Shown here: positions 17,886 through 57,679 of the stretch, in pieces | Layout of the letters: the number at the start of each line of letters is the position of its first letter | Position numbering within the stretch: the first letter of the stretch is position 1 | The notes under the pieces: model-generated | What the model was told of the DNA's origin: nothing | Databases searched by the model: none | What the model saw: the letters and a program-made list of their open reading frames with translations, nothing else | DNA from: Minisyncoccia bacterium | GTDB taxonomy: Bacteria > Patescibacteriota > Minisyncoccia > Phycocordibacterales > CAIZLB01 | Assembly: GCA_041752275.1 (NCBI GenBank) | Contig: JBGSHK010000015.1 | Coordinates: 64,641 to 128,640, forward strand | Length of the DNA stretch: 64,000 nt | Direction of reading: 5' to 3' | Made by a program: the position numbers and the translations under genes

Positions 17886-20132
17886 CTATTTCACCCTACT
17901 ATCTATCTCCGCATTTGTACCGGTTGTAATATCTGTGGTCATGGAATTATTTTTTAATAATAATTTATCCCCTGTAAAACTATCTGTTGCTGTTATGAAT
18001 GGTTCAATAATAGTTACCGGGATCTGACCTGTTTGTGTTAAGGTTGGTGTAAAACCTATATCAAAATAAAATTCTTTTATAGACTTATCTATACCAACAC
18101 CTGCCTCTATATCACCTAAACTTATGGATATTTCTCGGGTTGATTTATTATATTTTAAAGAAGATGATGGTATATTTGAACTATAAGAATTTTTCCATAT
18201 AGAATTTGGTGGTAATTTTGCAATAAATACAACATCTTTAATAGTGTTTGCTGTATTTGAAATATTTCCAGTATACCTAAAAACAGTTTCTTTATTTACC
18301 TCAGGAGAATATGCTCCTCCAAAATATGATAGATTTGAAATAAATAAGACTTCAGTTTTTAATCTTAATTGTTTTTTTGTACTTGCAACAATTGATTCAG
18401 GAACTCTATTTTCACCAAGTCTTTGAGCATTCACGTTTACAGTAAGCTCAGAAGTTGCTCTTCTTAATGTTTTTATAAAGTTTTCTTCACTTGAAATAGT
18501 TCCTATACTGAAACTCATCTCTCTGGTTTCTCCCGGTGATATAACCGCCAACCTTGAATTTGTTGATTTATCCCAAAAAATAACATCTCTATTTGAATCA
18601 TAAAATCCATTATCAGTCTTAACACTTCTCCTATCTATTAAAACTCCTCCCAACAAAACCTCAACAATAACATCTGTAACACTGTCAGGTAATGTGTTTG
18701 TTACAGATAAATCAATTCTCAAATCTTGATCATATTGAACTGATTTATTTTCAGAACTATCTCCATCTATTAACAATTTAGTAATAACAAATGGCTTACG
18801 TATAGAAACTTGATTATCTTGAGTTGATAAAACTGTAAGCATTTCTTTAGTTTTAGGATCTTCTATGCCAATAATAAATCTAAAATTTTTGTCTACATTT
18901 ATCTCTCCTAAGAATTTACCCTTAAGACTAATGGTTGTTGAAGATAGAGAATTTATACTTTCAAATGACCAAGTGTTATTATTTGATACAGGTTTTATAT
19001 TTGATTCCAATAACTTATATCCAAAAGGATACTCTATCATCAACTGTATATTTTCTAATATTTCCTCTGTATTTGAATTTATTTCAATATCAAAATTTAA
19101 CTCTTGATTGTTATTGATTTCTTTTATATTTGATATAACAATATTTATAGGACTACCAACTATAAAAACACTTACATTTTTTTCAGTTTGAAAAATTGTA
19201 GACGAATCATTTATATTAAACTCATAAGAATAATTTATATTTTTTTTAATATTTTGCTCACCAAAAAAAACAACAGAGTTTTTCTTTCTTATTGTCTCAC
19301 CTGGTTTTATTGTACCAACAGAAATTCTTTCATTTGTTAAATCTTGATTTTTATTAAATGGAGATCTTGAACCACTTGGATATTGTATTATTAAATCTGA
19401 CAATATTAATTCTGAATTATTATTATTTGTAATATCTATAATAAAATCAGAAACTTCCCCACTTTTAACAGAAACGGGTCCTGTAACTTTTATATCTATT
19501 TTATTTGTAGATATGGTATTTTTTCCATTTAATATGTTTATATATGTATAGAAAAAAGAACCTACAAAAATAATAAATACAAATATAAATATAATAAGAC
19601 TAAAGTTAAAGTTATTTTTTTTCTTTTTTGATAGTTTTATATCATCTTGCATATCTGCGGTTTCACCTATTTTTACAGTTTTTAAATTAGCATGATAATT
19701 TGGCTGAAAATTATTTTTATTTTCAACAGTTTTATTTAATTTAAGATTTGGGTATAAACTATTTATGTTTTTAGCATCAAGCTGTGCCTGTGCTATTTTT
19801 AAAGTCGCAGTTGTTTTATCTAACTTATTTTCAATATCATCAGCTCTTTTATTGCTATAAAAATCAGCATTGTTATTATTTTCAAATCTATTGTTTAAAA
19901 AATCATTTATGGATTCTTTTTCTTCTTCTGGTTTTATTTTAACACTTTTACTATCTTTATCATCTTTACTATCTTTATTTTTTATAATTTCTTTTTCCCA
20001 ATTTTTAGGTATATTTAAATCATGCTTATGTAAAGAGTTTAGTTTAGAAGTATCATCAGTTAAAGATCTTGAATATAGCTTTTGTTTTAACTTATTTATT
20101 TTATTTACATCTTCATCACTTAGATTATTCAT
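17886..20132 (-). CDS. hypothetical large membrane-anchored protein (charged N-terminal region, 1 TM, ~550-aa extracytoplasmic region)
   Basis: 748 aa with a single TM (FSLIIFIFVFIIFVGSFFYTYI); Asn/Ile/Ser-rich, no recognisable catalytic motif. Confidence 0.35.
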   Translation of the reverse strand: MNNLSDEDVNKINKLKQKLYSRSLTDDTSKLNSLHKHDLNIPKNWEKEIIKNKDSKDDKDSKSVKIKPEEEKESINDFLNNRFENNNNADFYSNKRADDIENKLDKTTATLKIAQAQLDAKNINSLYPNLKLNKTVENKNNFQPNYHANLKTVKIGETADMQDDIKLSKKKKNNFNFSLIIFIFVFIIFVGSFFYTYINILNGKNTISTNKIDIKVTGPVSVKSGEVSDFIIDITNNNNSELILSDLIIQYPSGSRSPFNKNQDLTNERISVGTIKPGETIRKKNSVVFFGEQNIKKNINYSYEFNINDSSTIFQTEKNVSVFIVGSPINIVISNIKEINNNQELNFDIEINSNTEEILENIQLMIEYPFGYKLLESNIKPVSNNNTWSFESINSLSSTTISLKGKFLGEINVDKNFRFIIGIEDPKTKEMLTVLSTQDNQVSIRKPFVITKLLIDGDSSENKSVQYDQDLRIDLSVTNTLPDSVTDVIVEVLLGGVLIDRRSVKTDNGFYDSNRDVIFWDKSTNSRLAVISPGETREMSFSIGTISSEENFIKTLRRATSELTVNVNAQRLGENRVPESIVASTKKQLRLKTEVLFISNLSYFGGAYSPEVNKETVFRYTGNISNTANTIKDVVFIAKLPPNSIWKNSYSSNIPSSSLKYNKSTREISISLGDIEAGVGIDKSIKEFYFDIGFTPTLTQTGQIPVTIIEPFITATDSFTGDKLLLKNNSMTTDITTGTNAEIDSRVK

Positions 20133-20758: not shown

Positions 20759-23700
20759 TTAAGCTTTATTTACTATAATTTCAAAATCATCTGATTGTGT
20801 TATTTGTATATCATTAGAATTTACAGATTGTTTTATCATATCTATATATACTGAAATATCTTCTTTTATTTTTATTGTTAAATTTATTTTGTCTAAAGGA
20901 ACAAGATTTAATTCTTTTCTCTTTGACTGTATTTCTCTAATTATATCCCTAACTAGACCCTCCACTCTCAGGTCTTCGGTTATGTTTGTATCTAATGCAA
21001 CTTCATCGCCTTCTGTTATGTTTTTGACATTTAATTCATCTTTTATAATATCCGTATAAATATTTTCAATAATTTCTTTTGATACAGATACGGACTCTAA
21101 AGGCTGTCTTACTTTTATACCCGCTTTATTTCGCAAAGCTAAACCTTGCTCTATTATTTGGCGAGTTTTTGACATTTTCTCAAGTACTGAAACATCTTGT
21201 ATATCTTTAAAATCTGGCCAGTTTTCTAGGTGAACAGATTCTTTTATATCTTTTACTTTGGCAAAATCTTTTATAAAAAGATATATCTCCTCAGCCATAA
21301 AGGGTGTAAACGGAGCTATAACTTTAGATAAATTTAATAAAATAATCAAAAGATTTTTAGTAACTATCGAAGCGTCTCCTTCTTCGTCTTTAAAACGATC
21401 ACGACAACGGCGAAGATACCAAGTCGAAAGCTCTTCAACAAAATCCAATATAGGTTTTGCAGCTCTGTCTGTTTGATAAATATCCAAGTTCTCTGTCGCG
21501 TCTTTTATAAGAGTATTGAGTTTTATATCTATCCACGCATCCAACTCATTTTTATTTGAAAAATCGTTTTCAAGATTTATATCAAGATTTTTAACGCCAT
21601 ACATTTCTAAAAATGAAATAGTATTTGAAATCTTATTGAAAAACTTATTATTTATCTCGTTCAACATCTTTTGTGAAAATGCATATTCCTCGGCTCGAGT
21701 CACGGGAGATGAGAGTAAGAAATATCGAAGTGAGTCGGCCCCAAACTCCTCTACTACAGGCACAAGCTCGGCATAGTTACCTAAACTCTTAGACATCTTT
21801 TTACCGTCCTCAGCCAAAACCATACCACTTACTATTACATTTTTAAACGGAGCCTTATCAAATAAAGCCGCTGACATAAATAACATATAGTAAAACCAGC
21901 CACGAGTTTGATCCAAACTCTCAGCTACAAAGTCTACTGTAAGGTTTTGCTTAAAATCTTTTTGCTCTGACTCGTTAAAATCAAATGGATAATGAACAGA
22001 TGAAAAAGGCATTGACCCAGCATCATACCAAACATCAAGTACTTCAGATAATCTTGTATATGTTTCCCCATTTTCCACAAAAACAACTTCATCTATATGT
22101 GGTCTGTGAAAATCAAGCTCGTACTCAGTGTTGTGTGGTATGAATGCAAAATCTATCTTTGCATACTCAGAAGGTTTTGTTTTTTTATAAACTTTTTTTT
22201 CTTTTATTATATCTTCAAGATTATTACCGTCGGCAATATGATGAGTATTGTATACACAACCTTCATGGGTAACTATTAATATATTTTTATCTTTATTTTC
22301 TTTATCTGTTTCATATAAGAACTCGGCAACTCGTTTTTTTACATCGAGAAGACTTTCACCTTTTGGAAATGATTTACTAAACTTTTCTGATATATTTATT
22401 GCATATGTGTTATATATATCATCACCTTGACCATCCAAATCACCATATTGTTGTTCTATGAGCCTCGCATCTATTTTTATCTCTATATCTTTTCCTAATT
22501 TATCTTTTACAACTTGTTTTACTATAGCTGCAGTTTCTCTTGTTCGAACTATTGGAGAAGAATAAATCACATCTGGTATATTATTTTCTGCTATCATTTT
22601 CTCTACTGAAATACGAACATCTTCTTTTCCTTTATCGGTAAGATGATGTCGACTTGAAAACTCTAGTCCTGAACTCATAACAGATTCTATAAGATGAGTT
22701 GCCTCACCGTGTCTCATCGCTGTGTATGTATTTCTTCTTGTTTTACTTTTTATTTCATCAACTGAACCAAGACAGATATATTTATTTACAGACTCTTCAT
22801 TTGAAGACTTCCAAACTGGAAGTGGTGTTCCCCAATAGCGACTACGTGACACTGCCCAGTCACGGTTATTTTCCAACCATGAATGAAGTCTCTTATGTCC
22901 AATCTCATCTGGATACCAGTTTATACTGTTGTTTATTTCTATCATTCTATCCTTAACGGCTGTGGTTTTTATAAACCAAGATGATGTAGCATAGTTTAAC
23001 AAAGGTGTTTTACATCTCCAACAATGAGGATAACTATGAGTGTACTTTTCTTTTGCAAATAAGTACCCGTTGTGAGCAAGATATTTTATAACTTCAATAT
23101 CAGCTTTAGAGTGATCGTCTGACGGTTTTACTTGGCCAGAAAAATCTTTAACTTCAACCGCAAAGTCACCGTGAGTTGTTACATGTTTTATAACCGGCAA
23201 ACCCTCTCTTTGAGCCAGCTTCATATCATCGTCACCAAAGGCTGGAGCTATGTGTACTACACCCGTTCCGTCTGTATCAGTTACAAAATCACCGCTGTAT
23301 ATTTTCCAAGTTTTATCTGTTTTTAAATCTTGGTAATAATCAAATACAGGTTGATATGATAAACCAAGAAGCTCTTCACCTTTTATTTCTTTTATAACAG
23401 AAAATTGTTCACCTTCTTTTTTTAACGTGTCGATTTTTTCAAGAGATGATTTTAAAATAATTATTTTCTTTGAACCTGTGTCTACTTGTAAGTAACTAAA
23501 ATCTTTGTTTATTGCTAATGCCACATTTCCAGGTAGTGTCCAAGGTGTAGTTGTCCAAGCTATGATTGATGAATCTTTATATTCTCCATCAAGAATGTTG
23601 AAATATACATATTCTGAAAGATCGGCAATATCTTTATACCCCTCTGTCACCTCATAGTTTGATAACACTGTCTCACAATGCGGACACCATGGCATAATTT

Positions 23701-24208
23701 TATAGCCCTCATACACCAAACCTTTTTTGTGCAATTCTTTGAAAGCCCACAGATTTGATTCCATGAAAGATGCATCTAGTGTTCTGTAATCATTTTCCAT
23801 ATCTACCCAACGACCCAACTTTGGAATAATCTTTTTCCAGTCATCGCGAAATTTGAAAACTGAAGCTCTGGCTGTTTCGTTGAATTTTCCAACACCAAAT
23901 TCTTCAATATCTTTTTTATCTTTAAAACCTAGAGTTTTTTCTGCCAAACTTTCTATCGGTAGACCATGAGTATCCCAACCCCAAGAACGAGGTACGTTAT
24001 AGCCTCTCATGGTTTTGTAACGAGGATACATATCTTTTATGGCCGAAGGTAAGGCATTTCCAAAGTGAGGAAGACCTGTAGCATATGGAGGTCCGTCATA
24101 ATAACGAAAAACTGCTTGATCCTTATTTTTATCAAGACTTTTTTGAAAAATGTTGTTATCCTGCCAAAATTTTAGTATTGCTGATTCACGCTCATTTGGG
24201 GTTTTCAT
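20759..24208 (-). CDS. ileS: isoleucyl-tRNA synthetase with an inserted histidine-phosphatase (PGAM-family) domain
   Basis: IleRS signature GPPYATGLPHFGNAL (a HIGH-motif variant, HFGN), WGWDTHGLPIE, a CP1 editing region, DVWYDAGSMP and KMSKS (GKKMSKSLGN). Residues ~490-665 form a complete histidine phosphatase fold (RHGEATH ... SSPIVRTRETA ... IVTHEG) inserted between the WGTPLP and DVWYDAG core motifs. Confidence 0.8.
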   Translation of the reverse strand: MKTPNERESAILKFWQDNNIFQKSLDKNKDQAVFRYYDGPPYATGLPHFGNALPSAIKDMYPRYKTMRGYNVPRSWGWDTHGLPIESLAEKTLGFKDKKDIEEFGVGKFNETARASVFKFRDDWKKIIPKLGRWVDMENDYRTLDASFMESNLWAFKELHKKGLVYEGYKIMPWCPHCETVLSNYEVTEGYKDIADLSEYVYFNILDGEYKDSSIIAWTTTPWTLPGNVALAINKDFSYLQVDTGSKKIIILKSSLEKIDTLKKEGEQFSVIKEIKGEELLGLSYQPVFDYYQDLKTDKTWKIYSGDFVTDTDGTGVVHIAPAFGDDDMKLAQREGLPVIKHVTTHGDFAVEVKDFSGQVKPSDDHSKADIEVIKYLAHNGYLFAKEKYTHSYPHCWRCKTPLLNYATSSWFIKTTAVKDRMIEINNSINWYPDEIGHKRLHSWLENNRDWAVSRSRYWGTPLPVWKSSNEESVNKYICLGSVDEIKSKTRRNTYTAMRHGEATHLIESVMSSGLEFSSRHHLTDKGKEDVRISVEKMIAENNIPDVIYSSPIVRTRETAAIVKQVVKDKLGKDIEIKIDARLIEQQYGDLDGQGDDIYNTYAINISEKFSKSFPKGESLLDVKKRVAEFLYETDKENKDKNILIVTHEGCVYNTHHIADGNNLEDIIKEKKVYKKTKPSEYAKIDFAFIPHNTEYELDFHRPHIDEVVFVENGETYTRLSEVLDVWYDAGSMPFSSVHYPFDFNESEQKDFKQNLTVDFVAESLDQTRGWFYYMLFMSAALFDKAPFKNVIVSGMVLAEDGKKMSKSLGNYAELVPVVEEFGADSLRYFLLSSPVTRAEEYAFSQKMLNEINNKFFNKISNTISFLEMYGVKNLDINLENDFSNKNELDAWIDIKLNTLIKDATENLDIYQTDRAAKPILDFVEELSTWYLRRCRDRFKDEEGDASIVTKNLLIILLNLSKVIAPFTPFMAEEIYLFIKDFAKVKDIKESVHLENWPDFKDIQDVSVLEKMSKTRQIIEQGLALRNKAGIKVRQPLESVSVSKEIIENIYTDIIKDELNVKNITEGDEVALDTNITEDLRVEGLVRDIIREIQSKRKELNLVPLDKINLTIKIKEDISVYIDMIKQSVNSNDIQITQSDDFEIIVNKA

Positions 24209-57049: not shown

Positions 57050-57679
57050 ATGCAAGGAAAACTCATACTCATAAGACATCAGGAATCAGAATGGAATAAG
57101 CTAGGTCGCTGGACCGGACACAGAGATATACACCTTACACCACTTGGTTTTGAAAGGTCGAACAAATTTGGATTATATATAAAAGATTTAGATTTAAAAA
57201 TAAACAAAGCCTTTGCATCTATGCAAGTTAGAAGTATTGAAACTTTATCATGCATACTGAACACCTGTGAACTATATGATATACCAACAAAACATGCTGC
57301 CGAACTAGACGAAAGAGATTATGGGGATTATACAGGTAACAACAAATGGGAAATGGAAAAACAACTTGGTGAAGAAGATTTTTTAAAAATACGAAGATCA
57401 TGGGAATACACTCCGCCAAATGGCGAGTCTTTAAAAAAGGTATATGAGAGAGTTGTGCCCTATTTTACAGCAGAGATTTTACCCTTACTAAACAAAGGTG
57501 AAAATGTTTTAATAGTAGGTCACGGAAACTCACTTAGATCTCTTATAAAACACATTGAAGATATCTCAGATGAGGAAATAACAAATATAGAGTTTGATTT
57601 TAGTGAAGTTATTATCTTTGACTTAGATCAAACAGGTAAATGTGTAAACAAAAAAATTGAAGAAGTTTCTTTTGTTTAA
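57050..57679 (+). CDS. phosphoglycerate mutase-family histidine phosphatase (RHG motif reads RHQ)
   Basis: LILIRHQESEWNKLGRWTGHRDIHLTPLG and VGHGNSLRSL match the dPGM family; the conserved Gly of RHG is Gln here. Confidence 0.6.
   Translation: MQGKLILIRHQESEWNKLGRWTGHRDIHLTPLGFERSNKFGLYIKDLDLKINKAFASMQVRSIETLSCILNTCELYDIPTKHAAELDERDYGDYTGNNKWEMEKQLGEEDFLKIRRSWEYTPPNGESLKKVYERVVPYFTAEILPLLNKGENVLIVGHGNSLRSLIKHIEDISDEEITNIEFDFSEVIIFDLDQTGKCVNKKIEEVSFV

Follow-up and report, generated by a model that had tools for sequence, protein, structure and literature searches.

A histidine phosphatase domain nested in the CP3 subdomain of isoleucyl-tRNA synthetase in a Minisyncoccia bacterium and its relatives

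Introduction

Among class Ia aminoacyl-tRNA synthetases, catalysis by a nested domain has a precedent in the connective peptide 1 (CP1) editing domain, which is universal and hydrolyses mis-acylated tRNA. A further catalytic domain in isoleucyl-tRNA synthetase (IleRS) is known from the NCBIfam family NF040702 ('isoleucine-tRNA ligase, N-acetyltransferase domain-containing'). Branch-1 histidine phosphatases are fused to an RNA enzyme in the actinobacterial RNase H/acid phosphatase (NF005567, Rv2228c type), and to a nucleotide enzyme in the Nudix-histidine-phosphatase MutT1 (PDB codes: 3FJY, 9CXX). Here, we describe an IleRS that carries such a phosphatase inside one of its own loops. The gene, ileS, lies at 20759..24208 on the minus strand of a 64,000-nucleotide stretch of DNA from a Minisyncoccia bacterium (GenBank assembly GCA_041752275.1, contig JBGSHK010000015.1, positions 64,641 to 128,640 of the forward strand). 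This whole stretch is referred to as the window, and coordinates are positions in it. An earlier note on the window, made from the sequence alone, had proposed that a complete histidine phosphatase is inserted into the catalytic core of the synthetase.

The window IleRS has the overall fold and the domain arrangement (Rossmann/HUP, CP core, CP1, CP2, CP3, anticodon-binding domain, DUF5915) of type-2 bacterial IleRSs of the mupirocin-resistant type, such as Priestia megaterium IleRS2 (PDB code: 8C8V) and Thermus thermophilus IleRS (PDB code: 1ILE). However, compared with 8C8V and 1ILE, it alone has an enzyme nested in CP3 and an Asn at the fourth position of the HIGH signature. The phosphatases that the insert resembles, Geobacillus PhoE (PDB codes: 1H2E, 1EBB), PspA (PDB code: 4IJ5), GpgP (PDB code: 6S2Q), and CobC (PDB codes: 6E4B, 6NRU), are free-standing, and the insert is only 18-24% identical to them. 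The fusions with RNase H and MutT1 are end-to-end, whereas the phosphatase here sits inside a loop of its partner, in several alternative loops among relatives, and the partner is an aminoacyl-tRNA synthetase. The NF040702 domain differs from it in fold and chemistry, and the insert also differs from the editing domain, since it is lineage-specific and belongs to the phosphatases.

In the structures of yeast and Candida IleRS, CP3 is the subdomain after the CP2-3 linker, 453-ARDWNVSRNRYWG-465, which lines the pocket for the tRNA-CCA end and reveromycin, and the topology of CP3 varies among IleRSs (PMC7955072, PMC7191050).

Fold and catalytic residues of the insert

The Pfam family His_Phos_1 (PF00300) matches residues 498-653 of the whole protein with E=9.7e-23 (81.3 bits versus a gathering score of 21.7), and the segment delimited in the earlier note, searched alone, also matches strongly (E=4.1e-24, 85.8 bits). 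The motifs RHGE, SSPIVR, and IVTHEG are all present as that note had described, and the phosphatase is complete. In AlphaFold2 models, the insert alone reaches a predicted local distance difference test score (pLDDT) of 94.0 and a predicted template modelling score (pTM) of 0.91; the whole IleRS has a mean pLDDT of 89.8 and a pTM of 0.80, with ~94-97 in the insert part. As modelled with this confidence, the insert is a complete alpha/beta branch-1 histidine phosphatase that folds as an independent domain. It had been placed at 22214-22741 (residues 490-665); the domain does lie there, but the folded insert is longer and extends over residues ~489-694 (22127..22744, minus strand, as for all features of ileS below).

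Conservation of single residues was counted in 118 full-length homologues out of the best 120. The RHG motif (22706..22714) consists of R499, H500, which is the predicted phospho-acceptor nucleophile, and G501, with RHGE spanning residues 499-502. The second phosphate-binding arginine is R555 of SSPxxR (22544..22546), the predicted general acid is E585 in LIEQQYG (22454..22456), and the second catalytic histidine is H648 of IVTHEG (22265..22267). All of these are invariant (118/118), as are S551 and G527. Therefore, the catalytic residues are intact as first reported, and phosphatase activity itself is predicted. The RHG-R-E-H pattern, or a conservative variant of it (RHA, E to D), is kept in nearly all of ~410 domain instances. 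The mean identity to the query is 44% for the insert versus 63% for the synthetase core, and 36% versus 54% in the most distant third of the homologues. Strict conservation is thus limited to the catalytic set, and the remainder of the insert drifts faster than the synthetase, as expected of an active enzyme domain. Judged from the alignment, R499, H500, R555, E585, and H648 are under strict purifying selection.

The best fold matches of the insert are mycobacterial glucosyl-3-phosphoglycerate phosphatase (GpgP) and Hydrogenobacter phosphoserine phosphatase (PspA), both with a score of 21.6, followed by PhoE (21.0), a riboflavin-pathway histidine-family phosphatase (20.1), and CobC (19.4). The protein phosphatases SixA (16.0), PGAM5 (14.8), and Sts (13.9) score lower, and comparison of the insert profile with PhoE gave 6e-25. 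Membership in the CobC, PspA, SixA, or GpmB family was rejected, since every cut-off was missed; the insert scored 61.5-64 bits versus 162.9 for CobC (TIGR03162), 47-52 versus 350 for PspA (NF045917), and 28 versus 74.5 for SixA (TIGR00249).

The insert was also rejected as the phosphoglycerate mutase of the organism. It reaches 27-34 bits versus the cut-off of 81.7 in TIGR01258, and a separate gene for a short, stand-alone mutase (dPGM; 209 aa) stands at 57050-57679 on the plus strand, with 171.8 bits for the same model. This is the second histidine-phosphatase gene of the earlier note, and it has RHQ in place of RHG as stated there. Given this gene, the nested domain is not the mutase of the cell. 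From these comparisons, the insert would be a PhoE-like phosphomonoesterase of unassigned specificity rather than a mutase.

The insertion site

The linker between CP2 and CP3 reads WAVSRSRYWG (residues 451-460; 22829..22858) and corresponds to yeast 453-ARDWNVSRNRYWG-465. The CP3 subdomain that follows, insert included, covers residues ~460-726 (22031..22831), with borders set by homology to CP3 of the yeast (459-526) and Candida (473-534) enzymes and by alignment with insert-less relatives. In the same alignment, the window IleRS keeps the CP2-3 linker and both halves of CP3, and only one short loop is exchanged: the phosphatase takes the place of the 'SGxxVx' loop, which joins the CP3 helix to the DLH(K/R)xxVD element. 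The synthetase sequence runs up to ...ICLGSVDEIKSK, the inserted segment begins with TRRN and ends with IPHNTEYE, and the synthetase resumes with LDFHRPHIDE. The phosphatase is therefore nested inside IleRS as proposed, but its host is the variable CP3 connective-peptide subdomain and not the Rossmann core itself.

The claim of some 200 extra residues between conserved IleRS blocks is borne out by the span from RYWG to DVWxDSG. In the window IleRS, with RYWG at 457 and DVWYDAG at 727, it comprises 270 residues, and eight related genomes (L001-L008) have 249-264, versus 61-75 in ordinary type-2 IleRSs (~45 proteins from diverse bacteria in which both flanking motifs were found). CP3 thus has ~270 instead of 61-75 residues because a whole enzyme domain is nested there. 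The insert has a GC content of 0.29-0.33 versus 0.34-0.38 in its flanks, and is slightly AT-richer without a sharp compositional break.

Directly after the last phosphatase strand stands the junction motif IPHN (residues 690-693; 22130..22141). Conservation around the junctions is high (P691 118/118, H692 110/118, N693 107/118, N493 116/118, F687 115/118), and N493 together with IPHN is conserved in the CP3-nested copies only. To judge from this pattern, IPHN with N493 is a probable docking element.

The host synthetase

The ileS gene is a single uninterrupted open reading frame (ORF) of 1149 aa plus stop, and its product is a type-2 (eukaryote-like) IleRS. It passes the curated IleRS equivalog TIGR00392 with 845.7 bits versus a cut-off of 621.4. 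Besides His_Phos_1 at 498-653, Pfam finds tRNA-synt_1 in two stretches, Anticodon_1 at 890-1039, and DUF5915 at 1070-1139, the C-terminal region characteristic of type-2 IleRS. By Foldseek, the closest structures to the model are P. megaterium IleRS2 (8c8v) and yeast IleRS (8wnd), and also 1ile, with target-normalised template modelling (TM) scores of 0.81-0.92. Membership in NF040702 does not apply, since the protein scores 315 bits versus a cut-off of 1999, and no acetyltransferase match was found in it.

By motif inspection and alignment of homologues, the HIGH signature reads HFGN (residues 48-51; 24056..24067), as had been noticed before. At the fourth position, 86 of the 118 homologues have H, 26 have N, and 6 have S, and the first His (H48) and the Gly (G50) are invariant; in this alignment HFGN is a subclade variant of HIGH. 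Tryptophanyl-tRNA synthetase (TrpRS) naturally carries xIGN. For IleRS2, the HIGH variants G/AXHH have been described and linked to mupirocin hyper-resistance, and Asn at the fourth position is not one of these variants (PMC10485003).

The Thr-rich motif of the CP1 editing domain, TTTPWTLPGN, is at residues 219-228 (23525..23554). Since W218-P226 and N228 are invariant in the homologues, the CP1 editing domain appears intact. Its motifs WTTTPWTLPGN (218-228) and GTGVVHIAPAFG (314-325; GTGxVHxAPxxG type) are largely invariant. In the KMSKS signature loop (residues 804-808; 21785..21799), K804 and K807 are invariant. As far as motifs and model indicate, the synthetase part is intact, with HIGH-like and KMSKS motifs, CP1 editing, anticodon-binding, and C-terminal domains, and formation of Ile-tRNA(Ile) is its predicted activity.

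Occurrence in Patescibacteria

All of the best 120 homologues carry PF00300 together with IleRS domains (120/120; 46-100% identity). They come from NCBI, JGI, ENA, and Logan assemblies, partly on contigs of 0.3-1 Mb, and their named taxa are Parcubacteria, Paceibacteria, Zambryskibacteria, and 'Patescibacteria group'. In a survey of GTDB species genomes, scanned with a full IleRS alignment as a sample rather than a census of the taxonomy, at least nine genomes (L001-L009) have the nested phosphatase and ~70 other type-2 IleRSs, among the matches listed, are without it. The eight genomes with the CP3 insert (L001-L008) belong to Paceibacteria/Minisyncoccia, Yanofskybacteria, Spechtbacterales, and others.

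The earlier note had raised the doubt of a chimeric assembly. Mis-assembly is ruled out because many independent assemblies have the same architecture and the loop is replaced cleanly and in frame; the assembly chimera was rejected on these grounds, given also the GTDB genomes, the clean junctions, and the lack of a sharp break in composition. An intein or mobile insertion was likewise rejected, as no Hint, LAGLIDADG, or transposase Pfam match was found in the window IleRS. 'HN' is followed by E, D, or K, not by C, S, or T, and the N-terminal junction lacks a conserved Cys or Ser.

Other insertion sites and arrays

An exhaustive search with the insert only, over 1.84 billion representative proteins, gave 2095 matches at E<=1e-3, of which 176 reached E<=1e-10. 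Among the 150 best there are IleRS-length proteins, fragments, and free proteins of ~190 aa side by side. Wherever a large protein of this set could be assigned through Pfam or through IleRS signature motifs, it proved to be an IleRS; a single one of 1148 aa (P0165) fits no motif pattern and was left unclassified. When all copies were located with a local hidden Markov model (HMM) and aligned to the query core, at least three insertion sites in IleRS emerged. Site A is CP3, with 152 domains. Site B is the loop after DVWxDSG (residues ~740-757; 21938..21991), with His_Phos_1 in P0144, P0223, P0198/P0275, and P0171, and a GNAT domain in P0200. Site C is the loop after KMSKS and before Anticodon_1 (residues ~872-885; 21554..21595), with His_Phos_1 in P0144, P0223, and P0261. 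In the window IleRS, the loops of sites B and C are short. Since CP3 is normal and short in P0144, P0223, and P0275, the copies there do not derive from a CP3 insertion that has remained where it was. Copies at sites B and C are 30-50% identical to CP3-nested and to free forms alike (BLAST against all other copies).

Tandem arrays of two to four copies also occur, with catalytic residues intact in every complete copy. A Peribacteria genome (L009) has two copies inside CP3, with a CP3 span of 449, and P0185 has three complete copies and a fourth cut by the contig end. In P0171 (1087 aa, JGI/ENA), the first copy stands slightly farther along CP3 (between query residues ~710 and 719) than in the main clade, site B holds the second, and after KMSKS a possible third copy begins, cut by the contig end.

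A neighbour-joining tree was built from insert-stripped cores with BLOSUM distances and midpoint rooting; as it is crude, it was used only for differences of type among close relatives. In this tree, insertion type varies (none, AA, AC, B) among close relatives in the Peregrini/Peribacteria group, proteins of type BC branch separately, and the large site-A clade adjoins the insert-less Moranii/Staskawicz group.

Three foreign domains occur in one C-terminally truncated IleRS from a JGI metagenome (P0200, 1066 aa): a phosphatase in CP3, a GNAT acetyltransferase at site B, and a Y1_Tnp match (Pfam) at 340-461 that is REP-associated tyrosine transposase-like and lies inside the CP1 editing domain, between query residues 290 and 299. 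The Y1_Tnp region scores 81.3 bits for NF047646 versus a cut-off of 80, and the protein as a whole may be one real ORF or the read-through of an inserted element.

A free phosphatase gene beside ileS

The same phosphatase subfamily exists as a free gene. In a member of Ca. Staskawiczbacteria (L011), IleRS is ordinary, insert-less, and 947 aa long, with a Cys-knuckle CP3, and a free His_Phos_1 gene of 202 aa stands directly upstream of ileS on the same strand, ending 5 nt before the ileS start, with argS ahead of it. Its product scores 172 bits on the insert HMM, within the range of nested copies (119-227). The free form makes up a large family in its own right, comprising at least 120 clusters (56-100% identity). 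Linkage to ileS holds in further Staskawiczbacteria-like contigs. In L083, the gene order is argS, phosphatase, ileS, a further gene (x), and recO, with a 4-nt gap; L084/L085 share this order with a 4-nt gap, and L089/L090 with a 1-nt gap, of which P0153 was reached independently by the exhaustive search. In L081/L082 (Ca. Staskawiczbacteria, GCA_026395215.1, 5678-7686), genes resembling an RHH antitoxin and a YafQ toxin (the latter a weak match) and two small ORFs stand between phosphatase and ileS, all within 2.1 kb. Since L011, L083, L084, and L089 are without it, this toxin-antitoxin cassette seems to have been inserted secondarily.

Nested domains are mildly acidic (mean isoelectric point (pI) 6.4, net charge -3.5, n=191), and free phosphatases are strongly basic (mean pI 9.0, net charge +10, n=171). 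The basic composition may mean that the free form has to dock on a partner that is acidic, for instance IleRS or RNA, with a Lys-rich composition as a possible confounder. Two free phosphatases from JGI (P0333, P0379; 195-197 aa; PF00300 only) are labelled 'isoleucyl-tRNA synthetase'; such automated labels on free proteins of 190 aa are probably explained by annotation transfer from the fused proteins.

The window has the same ileS-recO neighbourhood. Downstream of recO it encodes a 748-aa protein (17886-20132, minus strand) with one predicted hydrophobic segment and without a Pfam match; in related loci, the gene in the same post-recO position has weak CLIPPER/DUF7619 matches.

Discussion

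Both parts of this protein are members of well-known families. What appears to be new, as no description was found, is the nesting of a phosphatase in a synthetase at alternative loops, together with a split-gene counterpart. Full-text searches of the literature yielded nothing on IleRS combined with a histidine phosphatase, a PGAM domain, CPR (Candidate Phyla Radiation), or a GNAT insertion, and two recent IleRS-wide surveys do not mention a phosphatase nested in an aminoacyl-tRNA synthetase. The remark in the earlier note that the architecture was unfamiliar therefore agrees with the papers searched, but not with the databases, where the sequences are present clade-wide with automatic Pfam matches.

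One phosphatase subfamily is repeatedly associated with IleRS: in CP3, in two other loops, in arrays, and as an adjacent gene. Pairing by at least three loops, arrays, and adjacent genes is, by Rosetta-stone logic, a classic sign that two functions are linked, and such a link between IleRS and the phosphatase is strongly indicated. Overall, the locus probably encodes a clade-wide bifunctional enzyme, in which a type-2 IleRS bears a PhoE/PspA/GpgP-like phosphatase in the CP3 loop, and this phosphatase would be an active phosphomonoesterase tied to IleRS, with a small molecule as the likeliest substrate. The reaction would proceed via a phospho-His500 intermediate with E585 as the acid. Phosphatase activity may be needed wherever and whenever IleRS is made, and in that case selection would have promoted their coupling, physical or transcriptional, time and again. 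A small phosphorylated molecule is the most likely substrate, ahead of a protein or the tRNA body, because the nearest structural relatives are metabolite phosphatases, because insertion in different loops speaks against a single exact geometry relative to the tRNA end, and because the nested domains are not basic, which does not suit a nucleic-acid-binding module.

Several points weigh against this bifunctional enzyme with a metabolite substrate. No curated phosphatase equivalog was reached above its cut-off by the nested or the free form, and fold similarity does not fix the substrate class in the histidine phosphatase superfamily. As for the gene pair, a free homologue in Peribacteraceae (P0276) is not adjacent to ileS, so the linkage is lineage-specific; the free gene is equally near argS and ileS, and streamlined CPR genomes can keep gene order without a functional link. 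To our knowledge, no pathway joins a histidine phosphatase to isoleucine charging.

A closer, mechanistic integration of the phosphatase with aminoacylation is a tentative and rather unlikely extension: it might clear tRNA-Ile of a phosphate or pyrophosphate that blocks its CCA end, remove a phosphorylated inhibitor, or reverse an inhibitory phosphorylation of IleRS. The proximity of the CCA-pocket linker, N493 with IPHN, the expansions in copy number, the GNAT at site B in one protein, and the basic free form all point in this direction. If it were true, IleRS in a large part of Patescibacteria would be a 'repair/guard-and-charge' enzyme, and the repeated independent insertions, arrays, and GNAT domains would be traces of an arms race around IleRS. 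Taken separately, a phosphatase directed to the tRNA end or to aminoacylation, with which IleRS would 'heal and charge' its own tRNA, seems improbable. The CP3 insertion comes directly behind the linker that lines the CCA pocket, the conservation of N493 and IPHN suggests a fixed rather than floppy orientation, IleRS is the partner in all fusions found, and the basic free forms would suit docking on RNA or on an acidic synthetase. However, sites B and C are in different loops, so that no single geometry to the CCA end is required, the nested domains are acidic, the closest structures are metabolite phosphatases, and there is no obvious reason why tRNA-Ile alone should need repair; we also know of no member of the histidine-phosphatase fold that acts on RNA 3' ends. 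The odds are somewhat poorer for a self-protection module, which would reverse an inhibitory phosphorylation of IleRS as the target of a toxin kinase, or destroy a phosphorylated inhibitor, with the GNATs as parallel 'guard' domains. Recurrent independent gains, differences among close relatives, and expansion to two to four diverging copies do resemble an arms race, and a GNAT at site B in P0200, the NCBI family 'ileS_w_GNAT', the toxin-antitoxin cassette in L081/L082, and the protein phosphatases of the superfamily (SixA, PGAM5, Sts) fit with it. Yet these protein phosphatases are the more distant structural matches, the cassette looks secondary, and the idea is wholly inferred; we know of neither a kinase toxin nor a phosphorylated inhibitor that targets IleRS.

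That the domain is a catalytically irrelevant passenger, a tolerated or structural expansion of CP3 (e.g. for stability or partner binding) descended from a phosphatase, is very unlikely. Although CP3 topology is variable among IleRSs and the insert evolves faster than the core, the five catalytic residues are invariant in 118 proteins with only ~36-65% insert identity, and are also kept in ~400 further copies, free-standing genes included. A structural role would not preserve the nucleophile, both Arg residues, the acid, and the second His, and a passenger role is therefore hard to reconcile with the data. Finally, there is next to no chance that the insert is explained by chimeric assembly, or by an intein or mobile element within ileS. 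The window is metagenome-type sequence, the insert is slightly AT-richer than its flanks, and the C-terminal junction happens to read 'HN'; however, more than 118 proteins (NCBI, JGI, ENA, Logan) and at least nine GTDB genomes share this in-frame architecture, the loop is replaced precisely, and there are no Hint/intein or transposase matches and no splice nucleophiles.

Conclusions

Extra catalytic domains are rare in bacterial aminoacyl-tRNA synthetases, which are among the best-studied enzymes, and here one, apparently active, is found across a large part of Patescibacteria. CP3 and the two other loops of IleRS are permissive sites for domain insertion, which are useful for enzyme engineering. 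The substrate of the nested phosphatase could reveal a new upkeep step of tRNA or aminoacylation, self-defence of an antibiotic target, or a metabolic shortcut in minimal genomes.

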